Source: Psychrobacter cryohalolentis K5
Lineage (GTDB): Bacteria; Pseudomonadota; Gammaproteobacteria; Pseudomonadales; Moraxellaceae
Reading direction: 5' to 3'
Length of the DNA stretch: 32,000 nucleotides
Assembly: GCF_000013905.1 (NCBI RefSeq)
Contig: NC_007969.1
Coordinates: forward strand, 1,650,001-1,682,000
This document shows, one piece after another, positions 4,091 through 28,537 of this stretch. Numbering within the stretch: the first letter of the stretch is position 1; each line of letters opens with the position of its first letter. Under the pieces are notes generated by a model. The model saw only the letters and a list, made by a program, of their open reading frames with translations, had not been told where the DNA came from and searched no databases. The position numbers and the translations under genes are program-made.

Positions 4091-4231
4091 TAAAAAATTA
4101 TTACCGTAAGTTTCATAATACCAGAGCGGTAAGTGGAGCAGTTTTTAAAAGTGGCGCTATTAATAGTCGTATACTAAAAACATATACGTTTAACATTGTT
4201 CATTGTATAAACACAGATAAAGAAAACAACT

Positions 4232-11545: not shown

Positions 11546-13135
11546 ATGGCTAAAACACCTGCGAACAAAAAAGATAAAACAGACAATGGCAATTTTGAAG
11601 AAGCCCTTTGGGATGCTGCCAACAAGCTACGAGGTAGCGTCGAATCATCAGAATATAAGCACATCGTCCTTAGCCTAATTTTCTTAAAATTCATCAGTGA
11701 TACTTTCGAGCAGCAGCGCCAAAAACTGATCGATACAGGCTATGAAAAGCATATCAACATGGTGCAAGCTTATACCAAAGATAACGTGTTCTACTTGCCA
11801 GAGGAGAGCCGTTGGAGTTTTATCCAGCAGAATGCTAAGCAAGAAGACATCGCGCTTAAAATCGACACGGCGCTCAGTACCATCGAAAAGACCAACCAAT
11901 CATTGAAAGGCGCATTGCCTGACAACTACTTCTCACGTCTAGGCTTAACGGCCAGTAAGCTTGCCGCCTTGATTGATGTGGTCAATAACATCGACACTAT
12001 CGGTAATCCAGAAGAAGACACGGTAGGGCGCGTGTACGAGTATTTCTTGGGTAAGTTTGCTGCAACTGAAGGTAAAGGCGGTGGTGAGTTCTATACGCCT
12101 AAGTCTGTGGTCAATCTGATTGCAGAAATGGTTGAGCCATATCAAGGCAAAATCTACGATCCGTGCTGCGGCTCGGGCGGTATGTTCGTCCAGTCCATCA
12201 AATTCATCGAGAGTCACCACGGCAATACCAAAGATGTGTCTATCTATGGGCAAGAGTACACCAGCACGACCTACAAGCTCGCTAAGATGAACCTTGCCAT
12301 TCGTGGTATCTCTAGCAACTTGGGTGATGTGGCTGCCGATACTTTCTTTAAAGATCAGCACGAAGACCTAAAAGCCGATTTCATCATGGCAAACCCACCT
12401 TTTAACCAAAAGGATTGGCGCGCCTCTGATGAGCTGGTCGATGACCCACGCTGGGCAGGGTATCCGACACCGCCTACGGGCAATGCCAACTATGCATGGA
12501 TATTGCACATGATATCCAAGCTCTCTGAGCATGGAACTGCTGGTTTTGTACTTGCCAATGGTTCGATGTCTACCACCACCAGTGGTGAGGGTGAGATACG
12601 CGAGCAAATCATCAAAAACGATCTGGTCGATTGTATGATTGCGCTACCGGGTCAGCTGTTTTATACCACGCAGATTCCGGTGTGTTTATGGTTTATCAGT
12701 AAAGACAAACAAGCTACGTCAGCTGATAGTAAGGCAAAGGGGTTGCGTAACCGTAGCGGTGAGACGCTGTTCATTGATGCCCGTAATATCGGTGCGATGA
12801 TTGACCGTACGCATAAAGAGTTTTCTACTGATGATATCGAAGCGATTGCCAAGACTTATCATGCATGGCGCGGTGAGAAAGAAGCGGGCGGCTATGAAGC
12901 CTACGCAGATGAAGCAGGCTATTGTAAATCCGCCAGTCTAGACGATATCAAAGCCAATGACTATGTGCTGACGCCTGGGCGTTATGTTGGGGCGGCAGCT
13001 ATCGAAGATGATGGCATTCCGTTTGAGACTAAGATGCTGGAGCTAAGCCAAACGCTATATGCACAGATGCAAGAGTCCGAAAAGCTAGATGCGACCATTC
13101 GTCAGAACTTGGAGGTATTGGGTTATGGCGAGTGA
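11546..13135 (+). CDS. hsdM: Type I restriction-modification system methyltransferase subunit HsdM (N6-adenine)
   Basis: HsdM-type N-terminal helical domain (EEALWDAANKLRGSVESSEYKHIVLSLIFLKFISD), AdoMet motif DPCCGSGGMF and catalytic NPPF (IMANPPFNQKDW). Confidence 0.95.
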   Translation: MAKTPANKKDKTDNGNFEEALWDAANKLRGSVESSEYKHIVLSLIFLKFISDTFEQQRQKLIDTGYEKHINMVQAYTKDNVFYLPEESRWSFIQQNAKQEDIALKIDTALSTIEKTNQSLKGALPDNYFSRLGLTASKLAALIDVVNNIDTIGNPEEDTVGRVYEYFLGKFAATEGKGGGEFYTPKSVVNLIAEMVEPYQGKIYDPCCGSGGMFVQSIKFIESHHGNTKDVSIYGQEYTSTTYKLAKMNLAIRGISSNLGDVAADTFFKDQHEDLKADFIMANPPFNQKDWRASDELVDDPRWAGYPTPPTGNANYAWILHMISKLSEHGTAGFVLANGSMSTTTSGEGEIREQIIKNDLVDCMIALPGQLFYTTQIPVCLWFISKDKQATSADSKAKGLRNRSGETLFIDARNIGAMIDRTHKEFSTDDIEAIAKTYHAWRGEKEAGGYEAYADEAGYCKSASLDDIKANDYVLTPGRYVGAAAIEDDGIPFETKMLELSQTLYAQMQESEKLDATIRQNLEVLGYGE

Positions 13136-14486
13136 TTGGGTAAAAACAACTCTTGGAGAAATAGTAAAGCTGGGCAATGGAATAATTCAGACAGGACCAT
13201 TTGGTAGCCAATTGCATGCCTCTGATTATGTTGATGAGGGGATTCCAGTAATTATGCCTCTTAATATTATCAATAATAAAATAGATTTATCTGGTATAGC
13301 TAGAATAACTAAAGAAGATGCAGAAAGACTATCAAAGCATTTAGTGAAAAAGAACGATATCGTATACAGTCGCCGAGGTGACGTAACTAGAAAAGCGTTG
13401 ATTACTGAACTTGAAGAAGGGATGTTTTGTGGTACTGGATGCTTACTTGTAAGACCTGGTAATAGCATAGATGCTCGTTTCTTGACCTATCACTTAAGTT
13501 CGCCTATAAATCAAGAATGGATAATCAGACACGCTGTTGGCGCTACTATGCCTAATCTTAATACAGGAATACTCAAGCGCGTTCCTTTGAACATACCAAG
13601 TTTGGATACTCAAAAAGCAATTGCCCATATTCTTGGTTCTTTAGACGACAAAATCGAGCTAAACCGCCAAATGAATGAAACGCTAGAAGCGATGGCACAG
13701 GCATTGTTTAAAAGTTGGTTTGTTGATTTTGATCCGTTGATTGATAATGCGCTGGCGGCTGGTAATGCTATTCCTGATGAATTTATCGAACGTGCTGAAC
13801 AGCGTAAGAAGATTGAGAAAAAAGACAATTCAGATATTCAGGACTTATTCCCTGATGCGTTTGAGTTTGCGGAAGAAATGGGTTGGATTCCGAAGGGGTG
13901 GGAAAATGGAATACTTGCTGATATTTGCTCGTACGGAAAAGGCAAAATAAATACATCAGAACTCACTTTAGAAAACTATGTTTCTACTGAAAATATGAAT
14001 AAAGAGAAGTCAGGAATTTCTCATGCAGCGAATATCGCGAGTACCAATCAAGTTCCAAAGTTTTCTGTAGGACAAACCTTAATCTCTAATATACGTCCAT
14101 ATTTCAAAAAAATATGGCTTGCTAGTTTCAGCGGTGGTCGGTCAAATGATGTCTTGAGCTTTCAAGCTCATAACTCTGTAGCTAATGAATATTTATTTAA
14201 TCTTCTTTATCAGGATTCCTTTTTTGACTATATGACTGCAACATCAAAAGGAACCAAGATGCCACGCGGTGATAAAGCAGCCATTATGAGCTGGTCAGTA
14301 GCAATACCTTCATCAAGATTAATGGAAGAGTTTTCGGAATTAGCAAAACCAATGTATCTCGCAAATAATCTTCGTTCATTACAGACTATTGAATTAGCCA
14401 AACTCCGCGATACCCTCTTGTCTAAGTTAATGTCAGGGGAGTTGTGTATCCCAGATGCTGCCAGACTTGTGGATGAAATAATATAG
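13125..14486 (+). CDS. hsdS: Type I restriction-modification specificity subunit HsdS (two target recognition domains)
   Basis: ATG 13125 lies 9 nt after GGAGG (13111-13115) and overlaps the hsdM stop (13133-13135). Central conserved helix LDDKIELNRQMNETLEAMAQALFKSWFVDF and distal helix ELAKLRDTLLSKLMSGEL flank two variable TRDs. The track's upstream start at 13089 is unlikely. Confidence 0.92.
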   Translation: MASDWVKTTLGEIVKLGNGIIQTGPFGSQLHASDYVDEGIPVIMPLNIINNKIDLSGIARITKEDAERLSKHLVKKNDIVYSRRGDVTRKALITELEEGMFCGTGCLLVRPGNSIDARFLTYHLSSPINQEWIIRHAVGATMPNLNTGILKRVPLNIPSLDTQKAIAHILGSLDDKIELNRQMNETLEAMAQALFKSWFVDFDPLIDNALAAGNAIPDEFIERAEQRKKIEKKDNSDIQDLFPDAFEFAEEMGWIPKGWENGILADICSYGKGKINTSELTLENYVSTENMNKEKSGISHAANIASTNQVPKFSVGQTLISNIRPYFKKIWLASFSGGRSNDVLSFQAHNSVANEYLFNLLYQDSFFDYMTATSKGTKMPRGDKAAIMSWSVAIPSSRLMEEFSELAKPMYLANNLRSLQTIELAKLRDTLLSKLMSGELCIPDAARLVDEII

Positions 14487-14538
14487 CTTTTGACAGTAAA
14501 TATTTCTCTCAAAAATATAGTAATTAATGGAGTTTAGC

Positions 14539-15408
14539 ATGAAAAAGCTTTTACTTAGTTTGGCGCTCAGCCTAAGCGTTCTATCTGCGACTCCTGCAAT
14601 AGCTGCCGCTCCCGCTTTTTCTGTCAGCCAAATGGCTCAGGTAAAAATCAAAGACTTAAGCTTTAAAGAAGTCATGCGTCAGTTTTATAGTGGTCAGATG
14701 AGACCTACCTCCGTCAATGATGAATATATTGAATCGATGCCAAATATCGGTTTAGGTCAAGTTGACAGCAATGGAGCAAGAATAGTTGCTTTAATGCATC
14801 CTATGGGACTTTATGATAACGCAAAAGGTGAACCACGTTATTTAGTGACCATTGAAAAGGTTATCGTTTATGATGAATCATCTGAATACTGTGAATCTTG
14901 CGGCTCAAAGGCAGATTTATATAGTTTTAAAAGACTAAATAATGGACAGTTTCAATTGATAAGCAGAACACCGGAGAGCGTAGCTTTTTATGACAGATGG
15001 GGCACAATGAACCTTCAGGACAATGACATTCAAAAAACTATACAGCTGTTAGGGACAAACTTAGTAGGCAGTGTTTTTAAGAGCGGTTATATGACTCTTG
15101 GCGAAACGAACAGTTGGTGGACAGTACTACACCTGCCTGAGAATGATTTTATTAATGTTTATGCTTTGGGTGATGCTGGTTCAGATAATGACGGTCAAGA
15201 CGATGAAGATTCCCCTTTATATTATAATTATGAAGGGATCGTTAAAGTAATGCCTGAAAACGCTGCTTATTATCCCATTATATTGACTTATAAAGGCATA
15301 CCTCCTGATGATCCTGAGCGTCCTAACTTCGTTAATAAAAGCTTCGTTATGAAGTTCAATCCAGTAAAAAAAGTTTATGAGACGACATCCAGCTTTGCAG
15401 CTTTGTAG
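14539..15408 (+). CDS. Secreted (Sec signal peptide) protein of unknown function embedded between hsdS and hsdR
   Basis: ATG 14539 lies 6 nt after GGAG. MKKLLLSLALSLSVLSATPAIA/AAP is a textbook signal peptide with an AxA site. The mature part has CESC and an acidic GSDNDGQDDEDS stretch. Gaps of 52 nt and 71 nt to the neighbouring hsd genes show no hairpin. Confidence 0.75.
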   Translation: MKKLLLSLALSLSVLSATPAIAAAPAFSVSQMAQVKIKDLSFKEVMRQFYSGQMRPTSVNDEYIESMPNIGLGQVDSNGARIVALMHPMGLYDNAKGEPRYLVTIEKVIVYDESSEYCESCGSKADLYSFKRLNNGQFQLISRTPESVAFYDRWGTMNLQDNDIQKTIQLLGTNLVGSVFKSGYMTLGETNSWWTVLHLPENDFINVYALGDAGSDNDGQDDEDSPLYYNYEGIVKVMPENAAYYPIILTYKGIPPDDPERPNFVNKSFVMKFNPVKKVYETTSSFAAL

Positions 15409-15479
15409 GGTTCACATTGCCGTAAGCGATTACTAATGTTATTGAAAGATGCTCTATTTATCTAAAAAAGGACTTATAG

Positions 15480-18400
15480 TTGAAATTCACCGAAGACAGG
15501 CTTGAACAAGCCATTATCGAGCTACTATCTGCTGAGGGCTATCCACATACGCTAGGTGAAGCACTCGACCGTAATCTTGACGATGTGCTGATTAAGTCTG
15601 ATCTTCGACAGTTTCTAGCGACCCGTTATAAAGATGACTTGATTACAGAGTATGAGATTGATTCTATCATTCATAAGCTTGAATACCTTCCTGCCTCCGA
15701 CCTTTACGATACCAACAAAGCCATTATGAAGTTTGTCGCTGATGGGTTTTTCTTGAAGCGTGAGGACTATACCCAAAAAGACTTATACATCCAGCTCATT
15801 GATTATGAAGCACTCGATAACAATCGCTACCGCATCGTCAATCAAATGGAGATACAAGGCTTTGAGTGGCGTATTCCTGATGGCATTCTTTATATCAATG
15901 GCCTACCACTGGTGGTGTTTGAGTTTAAGAGCAGCATCCGCGAAGATGCCACTATGTTTGATGCCTATACCCAGCTGACCACTCGCTATAAGCGCGATAT
16001 TCCAGAGCTGTTTAAATACAATGCCCTATGTATCATTAGCGATGGGGTCAACTCAAAGATGGGATCGTTCTTTGCGCCTTATGAGTTCTACTACTCTTGG
16101 CGCAAAGTGACAGGCGATGAGAAGTTAGAGAAAGACGGTATCCATTCCTTACTGACCATGATGAGCGGCTTATTTGATAAAGCTCGTTTGCTTGATGTTA
16201 TTCGCAATTTTATTTATGTACCTGATAAATCAAGCAAGGAAGAAAAAATCGTTTGTCGTTATCCGCAGTATTATGCTGCCACCAAGCTATACGACAATAT
16301 TAAGCAGCACATGAAGCAGCTCGATAGTCATGGCAACTTAATTGACGATAATGGCTTACGTGACGGTAAAGGTGGTACGTACTTTGGCGCCACTGGCTGT
16401 GGTAAGAGTTTTACCATGCTGTTTCTAGCACGTCTGCTGATGCGCGACGTTGAGCTTGGCAGTCCAACCATTATCTTAATCACTGATCGCACCGATTTAG
16501 ACGGTCAGCTGTCTGAAACCTTTACCAATGCTAAGACCTATATCGGCGATGACAATATCATCAGTGTCGAAAGTAGAGCGCATCTGCGCGAACAGTTAAA
16601 AGGTCGCAGAAGTGGCGGTGTGTTCTTGACCACCATTCATAAGTTTACCGAAGACTTAGCCCTACTGACCGAGCGTACCAACGTCATCTGTATCTCAGAT
16701 GAAGCGCACCGTAGCCAAATCAATCTACAGCAAAAAATTACCGTCACCGAAGACGGTGTCAAAAAGAGCTACGGCTTCGCTAAGTACCTACATGATTCAT
16801 TACCCAATGCTACTTACGTCGGCTTCACAGGTACACCAATTGATGCCACCCTTGATGTCTTCGGTCCAGTCATTGATAGCTATACCATGGTTGAGTCGGT
16901 ATTCGATGAAATCACGGTACGTATCGTCTATGAAGGCCGTGCTGCCAAAGTACTACTCGATAGTAAGCAGCTTGATGAAGTAGAGAAATACTATCAAGAA
17001 AGTGCTGACGCTGGCACCAATGAGTATCAGATAGAGAAAAGCAAAAAAGCCATGGCGAGTATGTCCACCATTCTTGGTGACCCTGATCGCATAAGAGCCA
17101 TTGCTGAAGACTTTGTTCAGCATTATGAGGCGCGAGTAGAAGAGGGTACGACGCAAAAAGGCAAGGCAATGTTTGTCTGTAGCAGCCGTGAAGCTGCCTA
17201 TCAGCTCTATAAAGACATCATAGCGCTGCGTCCTGAATGGAATGAAGTGCGAGCATGCGAGGAAGGCTCAACCTTGTCAGAGAGCGACAAGAAAAATGTC
17301 ATGCCCATGGAGCGCGTCAAGATGATCATAACTCGTAACAAAGATGATGAAAAAGGCATGTGGGACAATCTGGGTAACAAAGACTACCGCAAAGAGCTAG
17401 ATCGTCAGTTTAAAAATAGCAAGTCTAACTTTAAGATCGCCATCGTCGTTGATATGTGGCTCACAGGCTTTGATGTACCGTTTCTAGATACCATCTATAT
17501 AGATAAACCCCTACAAAAGCATAGCCTGATTCAGACCATCTCACGGGTCAATCGTAAGTTTGAAGGCAAAGAAAGCGGCTTGGTGGTTGATTATATCGGC
17601 ATCAAAAAGCAGATGAATCTGGCGCTCTCGTATTACACAGGCGGTCAGGTTCAAAACCTAGACGATATTCAAAAGTCAGTCGTGGTGGTCAAAGACCATT
17701 TGGATCTACTAGATACCGTCTATCATAAGTTTGACTCTAGTCTTTACTTTAACGGCACGCCATTAAAGCAGCTCAATTGCTTGAATGCAGCGGCTGACTT
17801 TGCGTTGCAATCTAAGAAGCTAGAAAAGCGTTTTATGGATTTGGCCAAGCGTTTGAAGTCTGCTTATGATATTTGCGTGGGCAGTGAAGCGCTCACCAAG
17901 ACTTATAAAGACAAGATTCATTACTACCTAGCCATTCGTACCATCATCTTTAAAATCACTACTGGCGGCGCACCTGACGTCGAGCAGATGAACCAAAAGG
18001 TACGTGACCTAGTGAAAGACGCACTGATGAGTGATGGCGTTGAAGAGATCTTTAAGCTGGGTGATAACACCGACGGTGAGATCGATATCTTCGATGAAGA
18101 CTACCTGGCCAAGCTTGAAGTGATTAAACAGCCGAATACCAAGCTAGAGCTACTACAACAACTACTGGCTAAAGCCATTGGTGAGCTGAAAAAGACCAAC
18201 AAGGTAAAGGGTGTTGATTTCAGTAAGAAAATGAATGCGCTCGTTGAGAAGTATAACGACCGTGACGAGCAAGACATACTACGCGCTGAAGTCATTGGTG
18301 ATTTCTCTGATGAGATCATCAAGCTATATAACGAGCTACGGGTTGAGATGGCATCGTTTGGTGAAATGGGTATCGACTTTGAAGAAAAAGCGTTTTACGA

Positions 18401-18662
18401 CATTCTGCTGTCACTGGCGCATAAATACGATTTTACTTATCCAGAAGATAAGCTGGTTGAGCTGTCCAAAGAGGTTAAAAAGCTCATCGATGATAAAGCT
18501 AAGTATATTGACTGGAATAAGCGCGATGATATCAAAGCGGAACTACAGTTTGATTTGATGATATTGCTTGATGAATGGGATTATCCACCTGTTGATTCAA
18601 AAGAGGTCTATAAAGAGATATTTGAGCAGGCTGAGAACTTTAAGAAGAATAGAGTGGTTTAG
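15480..18662 (+). CDS. hsdR: Type I restriction enzyme R subunit HsdR (SF2 helicase/nuclease)
   Basis: TTG start giving MKFTEDRLEQAIIELL (typical HsdR N-terminus). Walker A GATGCGKSF, DEAH box ISDEAHRSQ, motif III GFTGTPI, motif VI QTISRVNRKF, and a long helical C-terminal domain. Confidence 0.95.
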   Translation: MKFTEDRLEQAIIELLSAEGYPHTLGEALDRNLDDVLIKSDLRQFLATRYKDDLITEYEIDSIIHKLEYLPASDLYDTNKAIMKFVADGFFLKREDYTQKDLYIQLIDYEALDNNRYRIVNQMEIQGFEWRIPDGILYINGLPLVVFEFKSSIREDATMFDAYTQLTTRYKRDIPELFKYNALCIISDGVNSKMGSFFAPYEFYYSWRKVTGDEKLEKDGIHSLLTMMSGLFDKARLLDVIRNFIYVPDKSSKEEKIVCRYPQYYAATKLYDNIKQHMKQLDSHGNLIDDNGLRDGKGGTYFGATGCGKSFTMLFLARLLMRDVELGSPTIILITDRTDLDGQLSETFTNAKTYIGDDNIISVESRAHLREQLKGRRSGGVFLTTIHKFTEDLALLTERTNVICISDEAHRSQINLQQKITVTEDGVKKSYGFAKYLHDSLPNATYVGFTGTPIDATLDVFGPVIDSYTMVESVFDEITVRIVYEGRAAKVLLDSKQLDEVEKYYQESADAGTNEYQIEKSKKAMASMSTILGDPDRIRAIAEDFVQHYEARVEEGTTQKGKAMFVCSSREAAYQLYKDIIALRPEWNEVRACEEGSTLSESDKKNVMPMERVKMIITRNKDDEKGMWDNLGNKDYRKELDRQFKNSKSNFKIAIVVDMWLTGFDVPFLDTIYIDKPLQKHSLIQTISRVNRKFEGKESGLVVDYIGIKKQMNLALSYYTGGQVQNLDDIQKSVVVVKDHLDLLDTVYHKFDSSLYFNGTPLKQLNCLNAAADFALQSKKLEKRFMDLAKRLKSAYDICVGSEALTKTYKDKIHYYLAIRTIIFKITTGGAPDVEQMNQKVRDLVKDALMSDGVEEIFKLGDNTDGEIDIFDEDYLAKLEVIKQPNTKLELLQQLLAKAIGELKKTNKVKGVDFSKKMNALVEKYNDRDEQDILRAEVIGDFSDEIIKLYNELRVEMASFGEMGIDFEEKAFYDILLSLAHKYDFTYPEDKLVELSKEVKKLIDDKAKYIDWNKRDDIKAELQFDLMILLDEWDYPPVDSKEVYKEIFEQAENFKKNRVV

Positions 18663-18949
18663 TTATAATTATACGGTTTTTAACAATTGAAACTTATGTC
18701 GTTTTTATACTAATGTCTAGAGTGCTATTTCAAAGCTTGGTTATCAACAATCAAGCTAATGAAAACTAAAATGATAAATAAATTTTTGAACATGGAGAAT
18801 ATTAGGGTTGATTTTTTAAAGGTGTCTGCTGACACCGACTGTTAAAACCTTCAGGATATTAATGTTTTATTTGCTGCTAGAACTACTTTTATTATGTAAT
18901 CATTTGCATATAAGTTTAAATCAGGATGATTCTGATTAAGAGGGAAATT

Positions 18950-21577
18950 ATGCTTAAAAACGAATACTTACGCTTTATGAACACTATAAAACTAACTGCA
19001 GCGCCAAATGTATCAAAGATGGCTAATTTAATTCTCGCTAATTTTGATGAGTTGGCGTTATTGGGCACGCATCAAGGTCAGCGAGTAAGAAAAATAGTAG
19101 AGCTAACAGTTACAAGCTGGAATCAGTTATCCGATGAAATCTCACAATCACCAAAAGGTAGTTCTAAAGCTAATCCACTTATAAAGAGAATAGTTTCTGT
19201 AGAAGTGGGTCCATTTCGGGGTTTTGCTAAAGAAGAGGTATTGATTCTTGATAGCAATATAGTTCTTATATACGGTCCTAATGGGACTGGGAAAACGAGT
19301 TTCTGCGAAGCATTAGAATATGGGTTACTTGGAAGTGTTGCTGAGGCTGATAACAAGAGATTTAAAAATCAAGATAAATACTTTGAAAATGCCCATACAG
19401 AAAGCTTTACTCGTCCCATTCTTTTAGGTCGTAATGATCAAGACGAAGAAATAGAAATAGAATTTGACCAAGAGCTTTACCAGTTTTGTTTTATTGAAAG
19501 AAATCGTATTGATAGCTTCTCACGTATAGCAGCTCAGCTACCAGCTAAGCAAACAGAGCTTACCTCAACCTTATTTGGTCTTGATGCATTTAACGATTTT
19601 GTAAAAGGTTTTTCATTAGCAATTGATCAGAAATATATAGACTTGGTTGGGAAAAAAGCAGAGGAATTGAGAGTTAAAGAGCGAGAAACTGACATTCATG
19701 TTAGAAATAGACATCAGTATCTGGCTGATCTACAAAAAATAAAAGAAGATGAGAATAGCCTAGCTAGAACATATAAAGACGGTTATACCTTTTTGCAGAT
19801 GGATGATGAGCTTAATGGAAAACAGGGTAGTAGTGGGGAAATAAGTCGTATCGAAGCAGAGCTTCAAAAGCCTATAACATCTAAATCTAACCTGAACCTA
19901 GACTCTATGAATAGCGTTCGACGAGAAATTAGAAATGCTTACTCTAGAATTATGATAAATAATCAGGAGTTAATAGACAACTCAACACAAATTTCATATA
20001 AAAGGTTGTATGAATCAGTACGTGTATTGCAAGATGAAAGCGCTGATAAGTGTCCTGCTTGTGAGACTCCAATAAATTTATCGACTAGAAATCCCTTTGC
20101 TAATGCCATTCTAGAGCTAGAAAAATTAGAGCACCTTGCCAGAATTCAAGATGAAATACATCTTGAAAAAAAGACACTTAGCGATTCACTAGTAAAGTTA
20201 AATAGTATTATTACAGTTTGTGATAACTATTCCGATAATGATTTTTTAAAAGAATATTTAAAGGAAAATTCTTCAGAATTAGATATTGAATGGTTTCATA
20301 GCTTAGAAAATTCCAACTCTAGTGCTCATGCACCAATAGTCTTAATAGAAAGAATAATAAAGAATCAAATGTTAGAAGATTCAAAGATCACTCAGAAATT
20401 AGAAGAAAAACGAATAAATAACAACGGTTTAGAGAAAATAAGGGCTATATCCAATCAAATAATAAAACTTAAAGTGAATAAAGAAAATATTAATGAGCAA
20501 CTAAAAAAAGCTGATGATTTTATAGCTAAATTTGAAAAAGATAATGCTGAATTAATCGAAGATGTTAACTCAGAAAAAGAAGTGATAGCTAATAATATTC
20601 TGATTGCTGAATCTTACAACTTATTGATTATATCTCTAAATGATTATAAGAATAACTTACCTATTGATTTAGTTGCAGATTTGGGTGACATGACTACTAA
20701 ATTATATAATGCCTTTAATAGATACGATCAGCCTGAGGAGATGATCGGGAGGATAGATTTACCACTTGCACAAGATGAAAAATTATTAATATCTTTCCAA
20801 ACAACACCTGCTAAGAAACATGATGCATTACATGTACTAAGCGAAGGACATATTAGGTGTTTAGGTTTAGCCATCTTACTCGCAAAAAATATTAAAAATA
20901 ATTGCCCTTTGATTATATTTGATGATCCTGTAAATTCTATAGATGATGAACATCGGAAGGCTATTCGTGAGACATTATTTAAAGATAGTTTTTTCAAAGA
21001 TAAACAAGTTATTTTAGCGTGCCATGGCGAAGAGTTTTTCAAAGATATACATCAGACTATTGGAAAAAAAGCTGCAGAAGAAACTGAATCATATATTTTC
21101 TTACGTCAAAAAGGTGAAAATCATATACAAGTCACCTCTAAACATCGTCCTAAAAATTATATTCTAGCAGCATCGGAGTTATACTTTAATGGTGAGTATA
21201 AGGATGCCTTAATGTCATCGCGTCGTGCTTTGGAATACTTATGTGACAAAGCATGGTGGCACTACAGCAACAATTGTCATATAAGGGATCCGGCTATCAG
21301 TGTCGTTAGACGAAACCCTAAAGCACCTTGGGATTTAAACGCATTAGCTGCAAATATATGTTCTAAAATTAAAAAAGCTAAAGTAGATGTTCCAAATAAA
21401 GATGAAATAATTATAAGTCTCGACTTACTGCTTGGTCTGGGTAAGGATGAAGGTGGTTTACATTGGGCTTATCTAAACAAAGGTACTCATGAAGAAGAGG
21501 ATCGTGAAGAATTTGATCACATTACTGTAAAAGAAATAATTGAATCATTAGAAAGAATAGATTCCTCTTTACTGTAG
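18950..21577 (+). CDS. Rad50/SbcC-like ABC ATPase with a central CxxC zinc hook and a HEPN/DUF4145-like C-terminal domain (RloC-like restriction-linked protein)
   Basis: ATG 18950 follows AGAGGGA (ORF opens at 18926). Walker A GPNGTGKT (19274-19297), signature LSEGHIRCLGLA, Walker B LIIFDDP (20909-20929) and H-loop ILACHGEEF. CPAC at 20051-20062 sits at the midpoint of a ~515-aa coiled-coil-like insert. The ~140-aa helical tail carries SRRALEYL ... WAYLNKGTHEEE. Confidence 0.8.
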   Translation: MLKNEYLRFMNTIKLTAAPNVSKMANLILANFDELALLGTHQGQRVRKIVELTVTSWNQLSDEISQSPKGSSKANPLIKRIVSVEVGPFRGFAKEEVLILDSNIVLIYGPNGTGKTSFCEALEYGLLGSVAEADNKRFKNQDKYFENAHTESFTRPILLGRNDQDEEIEIEFDQELYQFCFIERNRIDSFSRIAAQLPAKQTELTSTLFGLDAFNDFVKGFSLAIDQKYIDLVGKKAEELRVKERETDIHVRNRHQYLADLQKIKEDENSLARTYKDGYTFLQMDDELNGKQGSSGEISRIEAELQKPITSKSNLNLDSMNSVRREIRNAYSRIMINNQELIDNSTQISYKRLYESVRVLQDESADKCPACETPINLSTRNPFANAILELEKLEHLARIQDEIHLEKKTLSDSLVKLNSIITVCDNYSDNDFLKEYLKENSSELDIEWFHSLENSNSSAHAPIVLIERIIKNQMLEDSKITQKLEEKRINNNGLEKIRAISNQIIKLKVNKENINEQLKKADDFIAKFEKDNAELIEDVNSEKEVIANNILIAESYNLLIISLNDYKNNLPIDLVADLGDMTTKLYNAFNRYDQPEEMIGRIDLPLAQDEKLLISFQTTPAKKHDALHVLSEGHIRCLGLAILLAKNIKNNCPLIIFDDPVNSIDDEHRKAIRETLFKDSFFKDKQVILACHGEEFFKDIHQTIGKKAAEETESYIFLRQKGENHIQVTSKHRPKNYILAASELYFNGEYKDALMSSRRALEYLCDKAWWHYSNNCHIRDPAISVVRRNPKAPWDLNALAANICSKIKKAKVDVPNKDEIIISLDLLLGLGKDEGGLHWAYLNKGTHEEEDREEFDHITVKEIIESLERIDSSLL

Positions 21578-21611: not shown

Positions 21612-22735
21612 GAGATCATCCCAGATTCTGTGTAACTGCCGTTTAGATTAAATGCTTACTGATACGGTCATCAAACATAATCATAAAGCGATTAAGGGCA
21701 GACGTCCAGTTACGAATGGGCATCGACCACTTTTTAGATGCCTGCTGGGTTGCTAAGTACACCACTTTAAATGCCGCCTGATCAGATAGGAACACCTTAC
21801 GCTTATTCACCGCCGTTCGAATCACACTGTTTAGAGACTCTATCGCATTGGTGGTATAAATCGCTTTTCTGATGTCTTTAGGGTAACCAAAGAACACTTT
21901 TAAGCCTTCCCAGTTATTGCGCCAAGACTTGACCACATGTGGGTACTTATCGCCCCATGTTGCGTCGAAGGATTCAAGATTGGCCTCTGCTATCTCATGC
22001 GTATCAGCGCCATAGATGGCCTTTAAGTCAGCGGCTACGGCCTTCTTATCCGTCCAAGGCACAAACTTCATTGAATAGCGCACCATGTGCACGATACACA
22101 GCTGAACCTGAGCATTGGGGTAAACGGTATTGATGGCATCAGGAAAGCCCTTTAAACCGTCGACACAGGCGATTAGGATGTCTTGTACCCCGCGGTTTTG
22201 CAATCCAGTGAGAACCCCTAGCCAGAACTTAGCGCCCTCATTCTCTGATAGCCACATACCAAGCAGCTCTTTTTTACCGTTAAGAGCGACACCTAACGCT
22301 AAGTAAATGGCTTTGTTGATGATCTGCTTATCTTGACGGACTTTAACGACAATGCAGTCTAGGTAGACAATAGGATAAACACTGCTCAGCGGCCTATTCT
22401 GCCAAGCGGTGATGTCCTCTAAGATTTTGTCAGTGACTCTTGAAACCAAGCTGCTTGAGATATCTACATCGTAAAGCTCTTTAATGGTTTCGACGATTTC
22501 ATAGGTTTGTCTGCTTTTTCATGCTTAGGGTAGCCAAGATGTTCTTCCATCTCAGCTTCTAGGGCAGTGTCGATGAAGGATTGCATGAGCTGCTTCTGAA
22601 AGTCTTTGATGTCATCGAAGCTATTCATGCTACCAGCCATTTGCTCGGCCAGTTTTTTAAGGTCAGATTGAGTAGTCATTGCTTATTCTCCGGTTAGTGA
22701 ATTATAAGCAGTTACACACTTTTTAGAAAAGGCTC
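21612..22735 (-). mobile_element. IS256-family insertion sequence remnant (internally deleted)
   Basis: Terminal inverted repeats GAGATCATCCCAGATTCTGTGTAACTGC (21612-21639) and GCAGTTACACACTTTTTAGAAAAGGCTC (22708-22735) share the outermost GAG and an exact 11-bp TGTGTAACTGC block at their inner ends. Length is ~1.12 kb against ~1.3 kb for intact family members, as I recall. I found no clear target duplication. Confidence 0.7.
21643..22679 (-). pseudogene. IS256-family (Mutator-type) transposase, internal deletion plus frameshift
   Basis: The N-terminal piece ...LEAEMEEHLGYPKHEKA (22464-22679) joins out of frame near 22500-22510 to ...TYEIVETIKELYDVDISSSLVSRVTDKILEDITAWQNRPL... (21643-22512). 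Family members normally have about 50-70 more residues between these blocks (from memory of the consensus). Confidence 0.8.
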
Positions 22736-22781: not shown

Positions 22782-23231
22782 TTAGTCTTTATTTCTCATT
22801 TCTCTAATAATATGAGGTGCTATAATTCTTTCAGTGCGAACTGATGTCTTACTATTAACCTCTTTAATAATTGCTATTAAAGTCATTGTATTTTCAGAAA
22901 GTCTATCTTCGAGATTAGCGATCTTCTCTTTTAACCTAGCATTCTGTGAAACAAAAGCCTCTCGAGTTCTCCCATTAATATACTGCTGCTTCTCTTTATT
23001 CTTTAAATTTAAAGGACTTAATTGCTTGTCTATATAGTATGAAATTAGATTGTGACGTTCAAGCGATGTACTTTTGCTTAAAGTGCTTAAACCGCCTCTT
23101 ATTATACCTTTGCATACTAATCTCTGATGTAACGCCGAAGGGGAGATAGGCGAATTTTCGAAGCCTTCTTCTAACATGGTAAGTAATTCCTTCTCAATAG
23201 CATCATCTAATGCTCTACCACGTAATGTCAT
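22782..23231 (-). CDS. Small helical protein ending the recombinase operon (GinD-like position)
   Basis: 149 aa. Its ATG overlaps the stop of the 781-aa gene (ATGA at 23228-23231). The N-terminal region looks like a small DNA-binding module, followed by a coiled-coil-like stretch (KEKIANLEDRLSENTMTLIAIIKE). Confidence 0.7.
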   Translation of the reverse strand: MTLRGRALDDAIEKELLTMLEEGFENSPISPSALHQRLVCKGIIRGGLSTLSKSTSLERHNLISYYIDKQLSPLNLKNKEKQQYINGRTREAFVSQNARLKEKIANLEDRLSENTMTLIAIIKEVNSKTSVRTERIIAPHIIREMRNKD

Positions 23232-25573
23232 TTGCTTAACTCCTTCTGAGCAAGATGTTCAAACGCAAATAGATCGGCTAAAGTGCTAATATGCCTAGAT
23301 TCAATTTTGTTATTGGTTCCAGCATAGATATTAATTGTATTTTTATTTGAAAGAGATTTTTTAGTAACTTTTTCAAGATGTATAACGTGATCTAACTGGT
23401 TACTTACTTTTTTAAGAACCCCTTTACGCTCATGGTTTAATAAAACTATCTCTTCTGCTTCAATTAAAAGTCGCTCTAATTTGTTTTTTAAAGCAATTAT
23501 CTTATATATTTCATCAGCTCGCCCAGTGAGTGTGAAGTGGCTACAAGACTCTCCGCTTTGGCATTTCACTCCATATGGACAGCTCCATAAACCAACATCA
23601 TAAGTGCAAGATCCAAGTTTTAATGGATGTAAATTAGTATGTCTAAAAATCATTTCTTCTGCTGCAGAACTCCCTTCATCATTTTCAATATCATCAAACG
23701 CAGCTTTTAAATCTTCAAAAAGATCTTCTTGAAATGACATCTTAATAAAATTAGATTTTTCATACTTATTATCGAATGTGTGTAAATTAGCTTTAAGATT
23801 TAATTCAGTGTCTAAGTTCTGTGATAAATGAATAGAGCCTATTCTTTTAATTACTTCAATTGGTGTCAGCTCAGACAACTCATCATTTATTGTTCTATCT
23901 TCTTGAATAGTATAGGGTAAGACAGAAGCACCAGTTTTAAGGTGTTCAATAGCTAAATGCTTGTAGTGCTGATTTTGAGTAATATCTATACGGCCCATCA
24001 ACATAGCTTGTAAATGGTCGGCTATCTCAGCTATAGCAAGAAAGGTATTAATATTGTGCCTAGGAATATGACTTGTCAATCTTGTATAATCACTATTAGA
24101 TTCCTTTAAGTCGTATTTCTGGAAAATAGATACAGATTTACTAGCACCTAAAAAATCATTTATTATTTTATTGTCAAATGGTATAGGAGTCGATTTATAT
24201 ACTAATGTTCTACGAATATTGGTAGACCCGCGAGCATGAATAAACAGTAAATCTTCGTAAGGGATTTTATTATTTTTCTGATTAGTATTCCATACAACAG
24301 TACATAGATTAGTAGTCTGATTTTGATCGTCAATAAAGCTTTGAGCGACGAATTCGTTAAGATTTGCTTTCGAAAAAAACTCTTGTCTATCTTTTTTTAT
24401 AGAAATTAACCTAGCATTCCTTAACGTCTTACGTACCTTATCACGACGCCCCCCTCGGCCTCTATTATCTGATTTTGTGCCAATTATAAATCTATCTATA
24501 TCGTCTAATTCCACAAAATCAGAATTTATTAGCTCAATTTCTTTAGGTAAATAACTGGAAAATTTATTAACTCTTAAGTAAATCAGATGTTCACGTAATG
24601 GTTGTGTCAAATCTTTAACAGTATCAAAAATAGTTTCGACCAAAGGTACTGAAGAAGGCTCCAACCAGTGAATTCTTTCGCCAGCACCTTTAGCACCAAT
24701 ATATTTAATTCCTAGGAAGTAGGGGCGTAACCCTTTATTTATTAATCTGTTTTTGGTATCTAAGTCTTCAATCTCTCTTCTAATAAGGCTGTCTTTTCTT
24801 AAATTGATAGCTTCAATGGATCTAAAGCCTGTAATGATGAGTAGGATAACTAAGTTTAATAAAATTCTTTCACCACGGTCCTCACATTTATGAATCAGAT
24901 TAACTATGTTCAGAAACGTATCAATAGTAATTAATTTCTGCTTATCTTCAATATTTTTATCATCAATAAAATCTTGTTCTTTAAGGTTCTGTAGCTCCTT
25001 TGCTTTTCTTGTGTAATTAGAATTATTTGAATATGTTGTACTATTTTGGAAATTCAATGGGGTTAGACAAAAGGCATAACGATTTATTAGGTTTTGTAAA
25101 CTGACACATCTGCCTAAGGTGTCAGCTACATTAGAATCGTTATTTTTAGATGAGATGGTATACAAGTCCATCGCATGATGGATAACCTCTGTATTTAAGT
25201 AAATCGGATGCTTTCTATCTGTTAATTCTAGCAATGAGTTATACCAACGTTTTAATATTATTAGATTAGCAACTGCCACAGTCGTAGATATAGATTGCTT
25301 CTTGCGATAAATAGCAACAATGATTGATTTCATAAAATCTTTATATTCTTTACTATTAATAATTATTTTAGATTTAATGCCTTTCATTCGATCACTAATG
25401 TTGTCAAAAGTTAAAATTCCTTTGCCACTTCCTTTTAACCACCCTGTACCATATGTTCCTATATTCCAGGCATCGTTGTCCCAATTATGATGGAAATCTT
25501 TAGAGAGGTTTGATTCAAAAAAAGTTTTCTGCTCACTAATAAAAGAAGCGTAGTTCTGAAAAATATTATCCAT
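23228..25573 (-). CDS. Tyrosine recombinase, third of a trio (GinC-like), with a C-terminal Cys4 cluster
   Basis: 781 aa. GFRSIEAINLRKDSL (Arg I), SHIPRHNINTFLAIAE (H-x-x-R) and MLMGRIDITQNQHYKH (catalytic Tyr region). Cys cluster CTYDVGLWSCPYGVKCQSGESC (23543-23608). ATG lies 5 nt after the upstream stop. Confidence 0.8.
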   Translation of the reverse strand: MDNIFQNYASFISEQKTFFESNLSKDFHHNWDNDAWNIGTYGTGWLKGSGKGILTFDNISDRMKGIKSKIIINSKEYKDFMKSIIVAIYRKKQSISTTVAVANLIILKRWYNSLLELTDRKHPIYLNTEVIHHAMDLYTISSKNNDSNVADTLGRCVSLQNLINRYAFCLTPLNFQNSTTYSNNSNYTRKAKELQNLKEQDFIDDKNIEDKQKLITIDTFLNIVNLIHKCEDRGERILLNLVILLIITGFRSIEAINLRKDSLIRREIEDLDTKNRLINKGLRPYFLGIKYIGAKGAGERIHWLEPSSVPLVETIFDTVKDLTQPLREHLIYLRVNKFSSYLPKEIELINSDFVELDDIDRFIIGTKSDNRGRGGRRDKVRKTLRNARLISIKKDRQEFFSKANLNEFVAQSFIDDQNQTTNLCTVVWNTNQKNNKIPYEDLLFIHARGSTNIRRTLVYKSTPIPFDNKIINDFLGASKSVSIFQKYDLKESNSDYTRLTSHIPRHNINTFLAIAEIADHLQAMLMGRIDITQNQHYKHLAIEHLKTGASVLPYTIQEDRTINDELSELTPIEVIKRIGSIHLSQNLDTELNLKANLHTFDNKYEKSNFIKMSFQEDLFEDLKAAFDDIENDEGSSAAEEMIFRHTNLHPLKLGSCTYDVGLWSCPYGVKCQSGESCSHFTLTGRADEIYKIIALKNKLERLLIEAEEIVLLNHERKGVLKKVSNQLDHVIHLEKVTKKSLSNKNTINIYAGTNNKIESRHISTLADLFAFEHLAQKELSK

Positions 25574-25578
25574 TTATA

Positions 25579-27159
25579 TCACTCCACATTAGTTAACGTA
25601 ATAGCATTTGGATTTATTGCAATGCTTTTACATCGTGCGATAACTGATTTAATTTCTTGGCTAGTTGCTTCATATACTTGAATTAACGGATTTTTAGAGT
25701 TACCGACTGAGTCAGATAACTCTATTAAGTCAAGATGCTCTCTTTCTACACTTTGCAATACTGAATTATGATTACCTTCTTTGAAGGGGTTAAAATATAA
25801 ACACCCGTAACATGATCGAACTTCAGAGAAGGGGCATTCATCATATGAACGATTACAACCGCCTAGTTCTGAGTAAAGGGTATTGTGCACAATCCCACTA
25901 ACCTGATTACCTTGCCATTCAGATTTTGAGACAATGGCACCAGTTAATAGCATTGAGATCATATTTTGCCATACAGGGTTATTCCCTAAAGATTTTTCTC
26001 GAACTAAAGCTAGTTCTGGTGTTGCCAAAATATAATGCTTAGCGGCCACTAAAGAGTTGTGTCCCATTATATGAGCAACTTCTTCTGCACTTGCTCCTGT
26101 CATTGCCAAAGAGTGTCCTACATTGTGACGGAAATCAGAAGAGGTGTAATGAGGCTGTACCATATTATTACTTTCAATAGCTTTACGAGTTTCCAGAGGT
26201 GCGAACCTCACCATTTGTCTGTTAATAGCTTCATTAACAAATATAATGGCATTGCTACCAATATTGAACAACTGGTCTCCTTTATTTCTCTGAGTCCTAA
26301 GTTCATATTCCAACATAATTCTGGCTAACTCAGGTGGAATGGCAATTAGGATCTTATCAAGTATGAGTTTTTGCTGTTTTGCATAAGGTATCGCTATGCT
26401 GTAACGCATTAGGTTGCTTCTTTTTGATTTGGAGTCTAAATTAATGTCTCCGACGGCTAGTCTAGCTAACTGTACAGGTCGGATACCACAAACATAACAT
26501 AGGCCTAATACAGCACTGTCTTGTAATTCACCAATTGGCACTTTATCTGAGCTATTACTTGTAATACGAAAAGATAATTCATGTATGCCTTTAATTATAA
26601 GGTTTTTATCATGATCTTTTAGAACTGCATCAATATTTTGATAATTACTCCATGAGTTATTAATTGGTCTCGGTATAAACTCTAGATCTTCTAGATTATC
26701 AATATCGAACTCCGGAAAATCAATTCTACAAAGAGTTTTAATAAAGAATAAGAAAAAGTAAAACTCTCTACTGTTAGTAGTTCTCTTCATAAAATCCATA
26801 GATTTTGAATAGGATATGGAGCTTGACTTTATGTTAAACGAGAAAAATAAGGTTAAAATATTATTAAGATGACTCAGGCCTATTGGTGAGTTCTTACTTA
26901 CGAAACAAGCTAGTATATATTTTTTTAGCAAAACCTCATGTTTACCACCTATGAACTGAACCGAGGCTTTTTGACCAGAAAAAGTAAACGTCCATTTATC
27001 TTTTTTTGTATTTATATATTTATCATCAAACTCAGATGCCGTTTTAAATAATAGGGCAGTGGGTATATTTAATTTTTTAATAACTGTAATTTGCTGAGGT
27101 GTAAATGTATTTCTAGGGTCAAATTTAATATTAGTGTAAACAGTCCTATTAATAGTCAT
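25579..27159 (-). CDS. Tyrosine recombinase, second of a trio (GinB-like), with a C-terminal Cys4 cluster
   Basis: GIRPVQLARLAVGDI (Arg I), DFRHNVGHSLAMTGASAEEVAHIMGHNSLVAAKHY (H-x-x-R, H, Y). Cys cluster CNRSYDECPFSEVRSCYGC (25801-25857). Preferred start is ATG 27159, 8 nt after GAGGA, overlapping the upstream gene by 11 nt. The track's TTG 27192 is less likely. Confidence 0.8.
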   Translation of the reverse strand: MTINRTVYTNIKFDPRNTFTPQQITVIKKLNIPTALLFKTASEFDDKYINTKKDKWTFTFSGQKASVQFIGGKHEVLLKKYILACFVSKNSPIGLSHLNNILTLFFSFNIKSSSISYSKSMDFMKRTTNSREFYFFLFFIKTLCRIDFPEFDIDNLEDLEFIPRPINNSWSNYQNIDAVLKDHDKNLIIKGIHELSFRITSNSSDKVPIGELQDSAVLGLCYVCGIRPVQLARLAVGDINLDSKSKRSNLMRYSIAIPYAKQQKLILDKILIAIPPELARIMLEYELRTQRNKGDQLFNIGSNAIIFVNEAINRQMVRFAPLETRKAIESNNMVQPHYTSSDFRHNVGHSLAMTGASAEEVAHIMGHNSLVAAKHYILATPELALVREKSLGNNPVWQNMISMLLTGAIVSKSEWQGNQVSGIVHNTLYSELGGCNRSYDECPFSEVRSCYGCLYFNPFKEGNHNSVLQSVEREHLDLIELSDSVGNSKNPLIQVYEATSQEIKSVIARCKSIAINPNAITLTNVE

Positions 27160-28537
27160 TTGACGTATCCTCAAAATAAAAATCTGATTCAATTGTGTTG
27201 TTTAATGTATGGATTCTTCTTAAGTTTTCCTTATTAGCATTTTCGGAAATAAATCGTTTTGCATATAAATCTGGCATTATGCTATTAGCATGCCAACCGG
27301 CAAGCATTCGAAGCTCATCCTTAGCATCTTCCATAATTCCATTGTTAGTAAAATCAATATTGGATCGCCCTGAAAGCCTTATAATCTCATTATATTTTTT
27401 GTTGTAAGTATTTTTTAGCATTGAGTAAGCCCATGTGTGTCGAGCCGTATGAGGGGTAATCTTTTTCATACAACCTAAATATTGAGAGTCTGTGAATTGT
27501 GGAAAGTGAGTAGTAAGGGCCTCATCAATTTTTTTGAATATTAGATAAATAGCATCATATGATAAAGGCTTATAAGGCTGTCTAAGTGTCGTGAAAATAA
27601 GCTGATTATTTTCTTTAGAGTTAGGTCTTACTTTACTAATATATTGTAGTAAACATTGATAATCTGTCTTATCTATAGCTATAGACCTGATGGAGTCCTT
27701 AGTTTTAATTGAAGGTTTACGGTATCTATTATCTTTTGAATTATCAGACATCGTAGTGATAATTAAGTAAAAGCTGCTACCGTCTTTACTGGTCTTGATA
27801 GAGGAGTTCTCGAGGAGCATTAGTTCAGATACACGTAAGCCGTAATTTAATAAAATACGTACAATAACAAAGTTACGTATTTGATTTTCAAGAATTCTGA
27901 AGGGGTTTAATGGATTAATTTTTTTAGATGAACTAGGCATTATTATTTTATACAACATATTTACCATCTCATCTGTAAGGCTATCGAACCCTTGATGGCT
28001 ATTGACCTCAGTCGTAATTCTACTTTTTGAAATCTTCTTATAATTATCAGTATTAGACTTTAAGGAAACTAGAAGTCTATTTTGATGCCTTAATATTTCT
28101 TTAGGGCTTTCTTTGTAATGATAGGAATTAACGTATTTAATAGATATATACTTAATAAAGCGTGCAAATGCACGGACACGCTCTGCGTTGGTAAAAATAT
28201 TTGAAACAGAGCTATGTTCTAGCGAAATTAGATTTGGTGAGTAAATGTGGCCGCCATTAAGATAATGGAAAAAGTCGTCAAGCTCATTGATTGCAATTGA
28301 GGGGTCGTGATTTGACTGATTGAAGCTATAGCAGAATGTACTATCAAACTTTTGATGCCAAAAATTATAAAAGAATTTGATTGCTCGCAAAGTAGATTCT
28401 TGGGTAGATACTGATCTCAGATTAAGCCTGTCTATTGAATACATCAAAGGGTAGAACAGAGGCATTTTTGTCTGTTCATCGAATAAGATTAATACATTAT
28501 TGTCGTTGCCTACGGCAATCCTAAATAGTTCAAACAT
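27149..28537 (-). CDS. Tyrosine recombinase, first of a trio (GinA-like)
   Basis: 462 aa. GLRVSELMLLENSSI (Arg I), ITPHTARHTWAYSML (H-x-x-R) and LAGWHANSIMPDLYAKRF (H ... catalytic Y). It is the first gene of a four-gene co-directional operon. Confidence 0.82.
   Translation of the reverse strand: MFELFRIAVGNDNNVLILFDEQTKMPLFYPLMYSIDRLNLRSVSTQESTLRAIKFFYNFWHQKFDSTFCYSFNQSNHDPSIAINELDDFFHYLNGGHIYSPNLISLEHSSVSNIFTNAERVRAFARFIKYISIKYVNSYHYKESPKEILRHQNRLLVSLKSNTDNYKKISKSRITTEVNSHQGFDSLTDEMVNMLYKIIMPSSSKKINPLNPFRILENQIRNFVIVRILLNYGLRVSELMLLENSSIKTSKDGSSFYLIITTMSDNSKDNRYRKPSIKTKDSIRSIAIDKTDYQCLLQYISKVRPNSKENNQLIFTTLRQPYKPLSYDAIYLIFKKIDEALTTHFPQFTDSQYLGCMKKITPHTARHTWAYSMLKNTYNKKYNEIIRLSGRSNIDFTNNGIMEDAKDELRMLAGWHANSIMPDLYAKRFISENANKENLRRIHTLNNTIESDFYFEDTSNDY

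Follow-up and report, generated by a model that had tools for sequence, protein, structure and literature searches.

RloC proteins are defined by the motifs of an ATP-binding cassette (ABC) ATPase, a coiled-coil insert bearing a CxxC motif, and a C-terminal Arg-X3-Glu-X36-52-His triad, often with a Ser before the His (PMC2610378, PMC3458546). The key residues of GkaRloC are K44, C291, D572, R692, E696, and H737 (PMC2610378, PMC3458546); both tRNA cleavage and toxicity require every one of R692, E696, and H737 (PMC2610378). RloC has been assigned to HEPN (PMC3710099). Among defense proteins, it is one of few in which a Rad50-type zinc hook that senses DNA ends or damage is thought to act directly on translation, shutting it off, and it is poorly understood, its natural trigger and anti-phage role being still unsettled. 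Here we describe a gene at positions 18950 to 21577 of a 32,000-nucleotide window of Psychrobacter cryohalolentis K5 (contig NC_007969.1, positions 1,650,001 to 1,682,000 of the forward strand), which encodes an RloC-like protein of 875 amino acids (aa) directly 3' of hsdR, a gene of a type I restriction-modification (R-M) system.

The gene probably specifies an RloC-type nuclease that acts on its own in abortive infection or stress and that belongs to a sister family of RloC not named before. A protein database search returned more than 1,100 relatives. Within the RloC/PrrC ABC-HEPN group, the window protein is best treated as a member of a family that is sister to RloC and not as RloC proper, because its Glu-His spacing lies outside the published range and models of known families do not match it end to end. 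No earlier description of the family was found in the literature searched, which did not cover the ABC ATPase classification of Krishnan et al. 2020.

Architecture and kinship with RloC

The open reading frame (ORF) spans 18926-21577 on the + strand and has 883 codons for amino acids, the in-frame ATG at 18926 giving 8 extra residues. Every homologue starts at the second Met (nucleotide, nt, 18950) and none uses the ATG at 18926; a GAGGG at 18940-18944 also precedes ATG 18950 by 5 nt. The start was therefore placed at nt 18950, yielding a protein of 875 aa that is 100% identical to a database protein of the same length (P0001). Residue numbers below refer to this protein unless stated otherwise, and those of the 883-aa ORF are higher by 8. 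A first-pass annotation, made from the sequence alone, had already picked out this start, in agreement with the homologues, and all of the motifs it listed were recovered at the same positions. The features of the gene are as follows.

18950..21577, + strand, stop codon included: gene for the RloC-like ABC ATPase / zinc-hook / HEPN-like protein, 875 aa (homologue starts, GAGGG)
18950..19186, + strand: family-specific N-terminal helical domain, aa 1-79, four helices (alignment, AlphaFold2 model)
19187..19651, + strand: N-terminal half of the ABC head, aa 80-234 (Walker A; Rad50 heads are the best solved-structure sequence matches)
19274-19297, + strand: Walker A, G109-PNGTGK-T116 (GPNGTGKT, aa 117-124 in 883-aa numbering)
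19652..20029, + strand: ascending coiled-coil arm, aa 235-360 (AlphaFold2 helices, Foldseek matches)
20051..20062, + strand: CPAC zinc-hook motif, C368-P-A-C371 (aa 376-379 in 883-aa numbering), at the coiled-coil apex
20105..20674, + strand: descending coiled-coil arm, aa 386-575 (AlphaFold2 helices 386-425, 462-531, and 533-575)
20747..21142, + strand: C-terminal half of the ABC head, aa 600-731 (signature, Walker B, H-loop, partial family-model matches)
20837-20851, + strand: signature LSEGH (L630-SEGHIRC; LSEGHIRC from aa 638 in 883-aa numbering)
20909-20929, + strand: Walker B, LIIFDDP
21023-21025, + strand: H-loop, H692 (ILACHGEEF)
21143..21574, + strand: all-helical, HEPN-like putative nuclease tail, aa 732-875 (conservation, six-helix model)
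21221-21223, 21233-21235, 21476-21478, and 21488-21490, + strand: tail residues R758, E762, N843, and H847, respectively

Four parts thus make up the protein: the N-terminal domain, the ABC head in two halves, the antiparallel ~340-aa coiled coil that has CPAC at its apex, and the all-helical tail of ~145 aa. In an AlphaFold2 monomer model built on the family alignment (overall predicted local distance difference test score, pLDDT, 80.8), these parts appear as a four-helix N-terminal domain, the split head, long helices at 235-345 and 386-575, and a six-helix tail. The ascending arm is composed of helices 235-275, 281-289, 297-305, 317-345, and 350-360, and the two arms flank the CPAC apex, placing the motif at the coiled-coil midpoint as the first-pass annotation had proposed. 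CPAC falls within a segment of low pLDDT (351-384), which is expected because the hook forms only in a dimer and the model is of a monomer.

Across 72 full-length species representatives, C368, P369, C371, T373, R758, E762, W839, N843, and H847 are 100% conserved, so that the two hook cysteines (C376 and C379 in the longer numbering) are invariant in 72/72, and the extended hook motif of the family reads C-P-A-C-x-T-P-L ... N-P-F. The ABC motifs GPNGTGKT, LSEGHIRC, LIIFDDPVNSIDDEH, and CHGEEF are invariant or near-invariant in the family and align with their RloC counterparts; the Walker B/D-loop has the form F657-DDPVN-x-IDDEHR. The additional N-terminal region suspected at first reading is real, for the global alignment with RloC begins at residue 80, and in a 30-sequence alignment it has invariants of its own (F9, K23, A25, R45, and W57). 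No Pfam match was obtained for this domain (aa 1-79). When the whole model was searched against the PDB with Foldseek, Rad50 was the top match (7zr1, E 1.5e-9), followed by SMC heads with coiled coils and by Lamassu LmuB; Rad50 heads are likewise the closest solved relatives by sequence.

As a genuine RloC for reference we used the Shewanella ANA-3 plasmid protein (entry 60 of Table S1 in PMC2610378). BLASTP aligned the window protein with it over the Walker B/H-loop stretch only, at 26% identity, and hhalign with less diverse profiles gave a probability of 71% and an E value of 3.7e-5. Diverse profiles (90 sequences of the window-gene family versus 119 of RloC) yielded a local alignment of residues 464-811 with RloC 372-693 (probability 96.4%, E 1.3e-9) and a global alignment of residues 80-859 with RloC 1-746 (probability 98.8%, E 1.2e-15). 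In register with RloC are Walker A, the hook (CPAC with CPFC in the global alignment), LSEG, Walker B, the H-loop, and the first tail helix (S-RRaLE-nL versus M-RRIiE-NY). The landmarks are also near-collinear, GkaRloC K44, C291, D572, and R692 corresponding to K115, C368, D658, and R758 of the window protein with an offset caused by the N-terminal extension. This profile-profile similarity is significant, and on such evidence the window-gene family shares ancestry with RloC.

The helical tail and a proposed mode of action

The tail carries SRRALEYL near its start and LNKGTH (nt 21473-21490) near its end. Key residues of these motifs proved to be conserved: among 119 tails drawn from 50%-identity clusters, some pairs of which are <33% identical, R758, E762, and N843 are present in 119/119 and H847 in 118/119, with T846-H847 and R758-x3-E762 kept in at least 118 of the 119. 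In RloC the invariants are R651, R652, E655, W688, N690, G692, S693, and H694 (YWINDGSH), and the window-gene family has R758, E762, W839, Y841, N843, G845, T846, and H847 (AYLNKGTH). Both families therefore have in common an R-x3-E on the first long helix of the tail and, further on, [IL]-N-x-G-[ST]-H. The tail motif had been called non-canonical for its Leu at the position of the HEPN Rx4-6H arginine. That Leu is indeed there, but genuine RloC also lacks the Arg and has Ile at the same position; Leu for Arg is hence not a departure from RloC, and the real difference lies in the Glu-His spacing. By its residues, the LNKGTH-type motif is an RloC-type motif.

The tail was modeled with a pLDDT of 82.6 as six helices, and every Foldseek match with a probability >0.2 was a HEPN protein (Csm6, TM0613, SSO HEPN, TT1696, AbiV, and AF_0298; TM score 0.44-0.53). 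PADLOC (2023 release, as throughout) returned two weak matches for 10 diverse tails, both to Csm6/CARF-HEPN models at E ~0.02. A resemblance of the tail to DUF4145, suggested earlier, was not borne out, as the tail alone matched no Pfam family, DUF4145 included; a profile search of PDB sequences with the tail likewise gave no significant match, only chance matches to LRRC8. In a search of 1.84 billion representative proteins the tail profile recovered 282 clusters, and among the clusters listed the tail was always C-terminal in proteins of 853-920 aa, or in gene fragments, with no other architecture.

Several results weigh against placing the protein with RloC and its tail with the HEPN nucleases. 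The Pfam model AAA_13 covers genuine RloC over 1-713/713 with 595 bits; it matches the window protein only over aa 655-753 (model positions 522-626 of 713, 43.5 bits), a match that starts in the C-terminal half of the ABC head and extends 22 aa into the tail. The PADLOC models for PDC-S06 and PrrC match genuine RloC with 884 bits and E 1.6e-13, respectively; for the window protein, the PDC-S06 models give partial matches only (aa 624-731 and 629-720), none of them full-length, and the PrrC model gives no match. The spacing from E762 to H847 is 84 residues, versus the 36-52 that define RloC and 38 in the Shewanella ANA-3 protein. Aligned on its own with the RloC tail, the tail yields non-significant hhalign E values (0.27 and 0.019) with the His motifs out of register. 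The His motif is out of register in the significant full-length alignments as well, so that motif resemblance is what links the second half of the tail to that of RloC. The Foldseek matches to HEPN proteins have E values of 0.8 or worse, and the Rx4-6H arginine of HEPN is absent family-wide, L842-N843-K-G-T-H847 having no Arg 4-6 residues before the His. The first-pass view of the gene as RloC-like but divergent nevertheless holds, supported by the hhalign values given above.

The tail of the window-gene family is ~40 residues larger than that of RloC and has its own invariant loop, the region between the tail motif helices holding the invariants D780, I783, S784, P790, and P793. Such an enlargement could make a different substrate surface, tail-only profile similarity to RloC is non-significant, and many HEPN RNases (RnlA/LsoA, Csm6) are not tRNA-specific (PMC3710099). 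The same architecture and regulation could on these grounds serve a tail that is a general RNase, directed at mRNA, rRNA, or other RNA, and not a wobble-excising anticodon nuclease. We think this unlikely, given that R-x3-E with N-x-G-[ST]-H is the motif set of the RloC/PrrC type and not the Rx4-6H of general HEPN RNases, and that the closest demonstrable relatives of the family are anticodon nucleases.

For the preferred reading, a stand-alone RloC-type nuclease, a mechanism can be proposed by analogy with GkaRloC and AbaRloC (PMC2610378, PMC3458546, PMC3874168), from which we infer zinc binding, DNA sensing, RNase activity, a tRNA substrate, and a defense phenotype. The protein would dimerize through its ABC heads, and two CPAC hooks, coordinating Zn2+ with their four cysteines, would tie both coiled-coil arms together in a closed state that silences the HEPN-like RNase domains. 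The heads would then bind DNA ends or damaged or foreign DNA, arising for example from a failing restriction or bacteriophage exclusion (BREX) system or from phage attack. DNA binding and ATP hydrolysis would rearrange the arms and the hook, thereby freeing the tail domains, whose R758, E762, N843, and H847 would cleave RNA in a metal-independent manner, most likely at tRNA anticodon loops, so that translation stops and the phage is aborted. The back-up defense role put forward in the first-pass annotation is putative, as is tRNA cleavage. With its additional N-terminal domain and the ~40 residues gained in the tail, the protein might respond to another trigger or act on another substrate than RloC.

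More tentatively, the family may be a distinct and widespread sister of RloC in which a Rad50-like zinc-hook ATPase would control an enlarged HEPN-type nuclease through an added N-terminal sensor domain, with a trigger or RNA substrate unlike those of RloC; we hold this to be possible, though short of probable. A conceivable trigger in that case would be a direct read-out of the state of adjacent R-M or BREX complexes, or of DNA ends processed by SbcCD. If it were so, the gene would constitute a new single-gene abortive-infection system, beyond another RloC. The likely mechanism is otherwise the known one of RloC and introduces no new principle. The family is large, broad, and plasmid-borne, yet no 2023 PADLOC model covers it end to end. 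Recognizing it would correct the labels AAA family ATPase, DndD, RecF, and SbcC and add a candidate single-gene system to catalogs of defense islands, and its N-terminal add-on, enlarged nuclease domain, and operonic clades (hsdS, BrxL-SbcD, and nSTAND3) offer natural variation for dissecting how the nuclease is controlled.

Distribution, neighborhoods, and the local island

Among the matches listed, nearly all relatives have lengths of 866-904 aa and align over 99% of the query. Their phyla include Gamma-, Beta-, and Deltaproteobacteria, Firmicutes, Verrucomicrobia, Melainabacteria, Spirochaetota, and others, and source records name them "AAA family ATPase", DndD, RecF, or SbcC; relatives of genuine RloC are named "wobble nucleotide-excising tRNase" by JGI. 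A scan of 185,579 species genomes recovered 152 relatives only, a patchy distribution. Plasmids carrying the family number 29, of which 19 are conjugative, and in two annotated ones the gene is solitary among unrelated genes; no phage record carrying the family was found.

This distribution bears on whether the gene could instead encode an ATPase with a housekeeping role in DNA repair, paralogous to SbcC, Rad50, or RecN. Such a role would accord with Rad50 heads being the closest solved structures and sequences, with automatic annotation (the GO term "double-strand break repair" and the names DndD, RecF, and SbcC), and with an SbcD gene adjoining the homologue in 3 loci. We judge it very improbable in view of the patchy occurrence, of the residence in islands with integrases, insertion sequence (IS) elements, R-M, and BREX genes and on conjugative plasmids, and of the lack of an Mre11/SbcD partner in 77/80 loci. 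Furthermore, the Rad50 and SbcC proteins of repair have no extra C-terminal domain bearing nuclease-type invariants (PMC2610378).

We analyzed the neighborhoods of 80 homologous loci by all-against-all clustering of neighbor genes together with Pfam and PADLOC censuses. No conserved partner gene emerged: the largest neighbor family is common to at most 8 of the 80 loci, and such sharing is clade-specific only. Immediate neighbors include type I specificity subunits (6 loci), ResIII helicases (5), integrases (4), and, in 2 loci each, BrxL, Eco57I-type methylases, HepT, and nSTAND3, along with RhuM and PDC candidate systems. Type I R-M genes occur within 10 kb in 10/80 loci, about the fraction known for RloC itself, and in 7 of these hsdS immediately precedes the homologue on the same strand, at most 68 nt away. 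The R-M adjacency noted at first reading therefore holds for the window, where the gene directly follows hsdR, but across homologues linkage to R-M is facultative. The gene is stand-alone, without an obligate partner, and resides in defense islands and on plasmids.

Some clades do have close companions. In three unrelated bacteria (L013, 7906-13869, and equivalent positions of L025 and L030) an SbcD gene overlaps the stop of the homologue by 4 nt; the homologue directly follows the BREX gene brxL in L013 and L025, and in L013 and L030 SbcD is followed by a gene of the same cluster as the 1229-aa ORF of L013, an arrangement that could possibly be a BREX-linked RloC-like/SbcCD module. On the most divergent branch, of ~33% identity (L075, L076, L079, and L080), the same gene always begins 2 nt after the homologue stop; it encodes a 754-aa nSTAND3 nucleoside triphosphatase matching PADLOC PDC-S73 in L076 and L079 and is truncated in L075 and L080, which suggests a two-gene variant.

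An alternative is that the protein senses DNA or serves as a scaffold in the manner of SMC/Rad50 proteins, that its tail is non-catalytic, and that the killing or restriction activity comes from clade-variable neighbors (R-M, SbcD, nSTAND3, or RhuM), following the logic of LmuB. In favor of this, LmuB gives the best PADLOC match (1.4e-20) and one of the top structural matches, genes downstream in particular clades overlap the stop or lie right next to it (SbcD by 4 nt, nSTAND3 at 2 nt), hsdS stands directly upstream in 7 loci, and the tail has no HEPN arginine. We nevertheless regard a sensor of this kind as quite unlikely. There is no family-wide partner, and in most loci, plasmid copies included, the gene is alone among unrelated genes; genuine RloC matches the same LmuB model, which makes the LmuB match a generic one; and an Arg/Glu/Asn/His quartet that is near-absolute across tails <33% identical is typical of an active site. 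The suggestion in the first-pass annotation of a sensor with its effector elsewhere is likewise not favored by the lack of a conserved partner gene and by the confinement of the tail, among the clusters listed, to this one architecture.

Separately, the homologue appears split into two adjoining ORFs or interrupted in four loci (L041, L054, L059, and L062), and in L062 the match stretches over 3.7 kb for 800 aa. These cases suggest occasional inactivation by frameshift or insertion.

Within the window, the core genes ccmF, ccmG-like, ccmH, ccmI, and lspA occupy 64-4939, and a stretch of lower GC content with resolvase, R-M, IS, and recombinase genes occupies 6373-29335. From ~4.9 kb onward the window looks like a genomic island; no tRNA genes were found in the window. 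Its other features are listed here.

7738-8328: resolvase
10064-11256, - strand: two short adjoining ORFs of 163 and 238 aa, matching only C-terminal HsdR domains (EcoR124_C, T1R_D3-like)
11546..18662, + strand: type I R-M cassette, co-oriented with and adjoining the RloC-like gene (Pfam, called genes; context, not a constant family partner)
11546-13135, + strand: hsdM
13089-14486, + strand: hsdS
14527-15408, + strand: 293-aa ORF between hsdS and hsdR, with no Pfam, NCBIfam, or PADLOC match
15480-18662, + strand: hsdR
18663..18949, + strand: spacer of 287 nt from the hsdR stop to the gene start (sigma-70-like sites by consensus match only)
21643-22449, - strand: IS256/Mutator-family transposase without its N-terminal third (profile positions 137-377 of 379)
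22782-28537, - strand: four co-oriented genes, namely ORFs of 149 and 781 aa and then a pair of tyrosine recombinases that overlap (537 and 462 aa)

The spacer of 287 nt after hsdR, correctly measured in the first-pass annotation, contains or borders sigma-70-like sites at 18640-18669 (10/12 matches) and 18744-18772, in a number not above the shuffled expectation, and no terminator was predicted downstream of hsdR. The GC content of the gene (0.30-0.36) is lower than that of hsdR (0.43-0.46), as had been pointed out, but the gene is not the outlier: the surrounding island stands at 0.31-0.35 and the R-M cassette at 0.43-0.49, and it is the cassette that deviates. A separate origin of the gene on account of its low GC was accordingly rejected, its GC matching that of the surrounding island.

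The two ORFs at 10064-11256 look like the remnant of a second, degraded hsdR, upstream of and divergent from the intact hsdM. The truncated IS256 transposase lies 66 nt past the stop of the RloC-like gene and marks a rearranged island boundary. The block at 22782-28537 may be a mobile-element module; its 149-aa and 781-aa ORFs have no family match, only a sub-threshold match to Cas5fv_helical, and kinship of the 781-aa ORF with the Shewanella ANA-3 plasmid gene that lies in an integrase-756 aa-integrase block was considered and rejected for lack of similarity. As a side observation, hsdS is publicly called at 389 aa on a matching metagenome contig (L081, 4176-5345), and in the window 13089-14486 is an uninterrupted ORF of 465 aa in the same frame.

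Comparison with known systems

PrrC, the anticodon nuclease of tRNA-Lys in EcoprrI, resembles the window protein in that its ABC ATPase is followed by a nuclease domain, at the C-terminus, that contains an Arg-x3-Glu ... His triad. PrrC is ~400 aa long, has no coiled coil or hook, and is always R-M-embedded (hsdS-hsdR, type Ic), whereas the window protein has 875 aa with a coiled-coil insert of ~340 aa, and its gene follows hsdR after a gap of 287 nt. One homologue (L027) does lie between hsdS and hsdR, as prrC does, in the order hsdM-hsdS-homologue-hsdR.

With Rad50 and SbcC the window protein has in common the ABC head, the antiparallel coiled coil, and the apical CxxC zinc hook. The Rad50 hook of Hopfner et al. 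2002 reportedly reads CPVC, which the CP-x-C form of the window protein resembles. The window protein differs from Rad50/SbcC in its much shorter coiled coil, its extra N- and C-terminal domains, and its patchy, mobile-element-linked distribution; no gene for an Mre11/SbcD phosphoesterase was found near the window gene, and across homologues SbcD adjoins in 3/80 loci only.

Lamassu LmuB is an SMC-like defense ABC ATPase to which the window protein has its best PADLOC match (over aa 102-707) and a top structural match. Lamassu operons combine LmuB with an LmuA effector and usually LmuC, whereas the effector-like domain of the window protein is fused in cis; neither LmuA nor LmuC was found near the window gene, and a PADLOC scan of its neighbors gave no matches. 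Membership in Lamassu was rejected on the lack of LmuA/LmuC partners and of any conserved partner in 80 loci, and because genuine RloC matches the same LmuB model, the resemblance appears to be one generic to coiled-coil ABC proteins. Other ABC-HEPN fusions, the APECO1_4465 and ERFG_01251 groups, have been described in mobile or defense contexts (Anantharaman et al. 2013, PMC3710099). Compared by description only, in them too an ABC ATPase precedes a HEPN-type domain; ERFG_01251 is described with a classical Rx4-6H HEPN (PMC3710099), unlike the tail of the window gene.

RloC (Davidov & Kaufmann 2008; COG4694), an anticodon nuclease that responds to zinc, excises the wobble nucleotide, and is regulated by its zinc hook and a DNA-dependent ATPase, remains the closest counterpart; hook mutations and DNA-break inducers both activate it. 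Like the window protein, it unites in one chain an ABC head in two halves, a coiled coil bearing the CxxC hook at its center, and a helical domain at the C-terminus, and it is likewise stand-alone, with type I/III R-M linkage in ~10% of loci (8/72 in PMC2610378) and with RhuM, integrases, and transposases nearby (PMC2610378 Table S1; PMC3710099). The window-gene family is set apart by its conserved N-terminal domain of ~79 aa, which RloC lacks, and by a hook of the form C-P-A-C-x-T-P-L as compared with C-x-F-C in RloC. Table S1 of PMC2610378 lists "RloC orthologues" of 849-895 aa that are flagged "poor ACNase triad?", and some of these may belong to the family described here.

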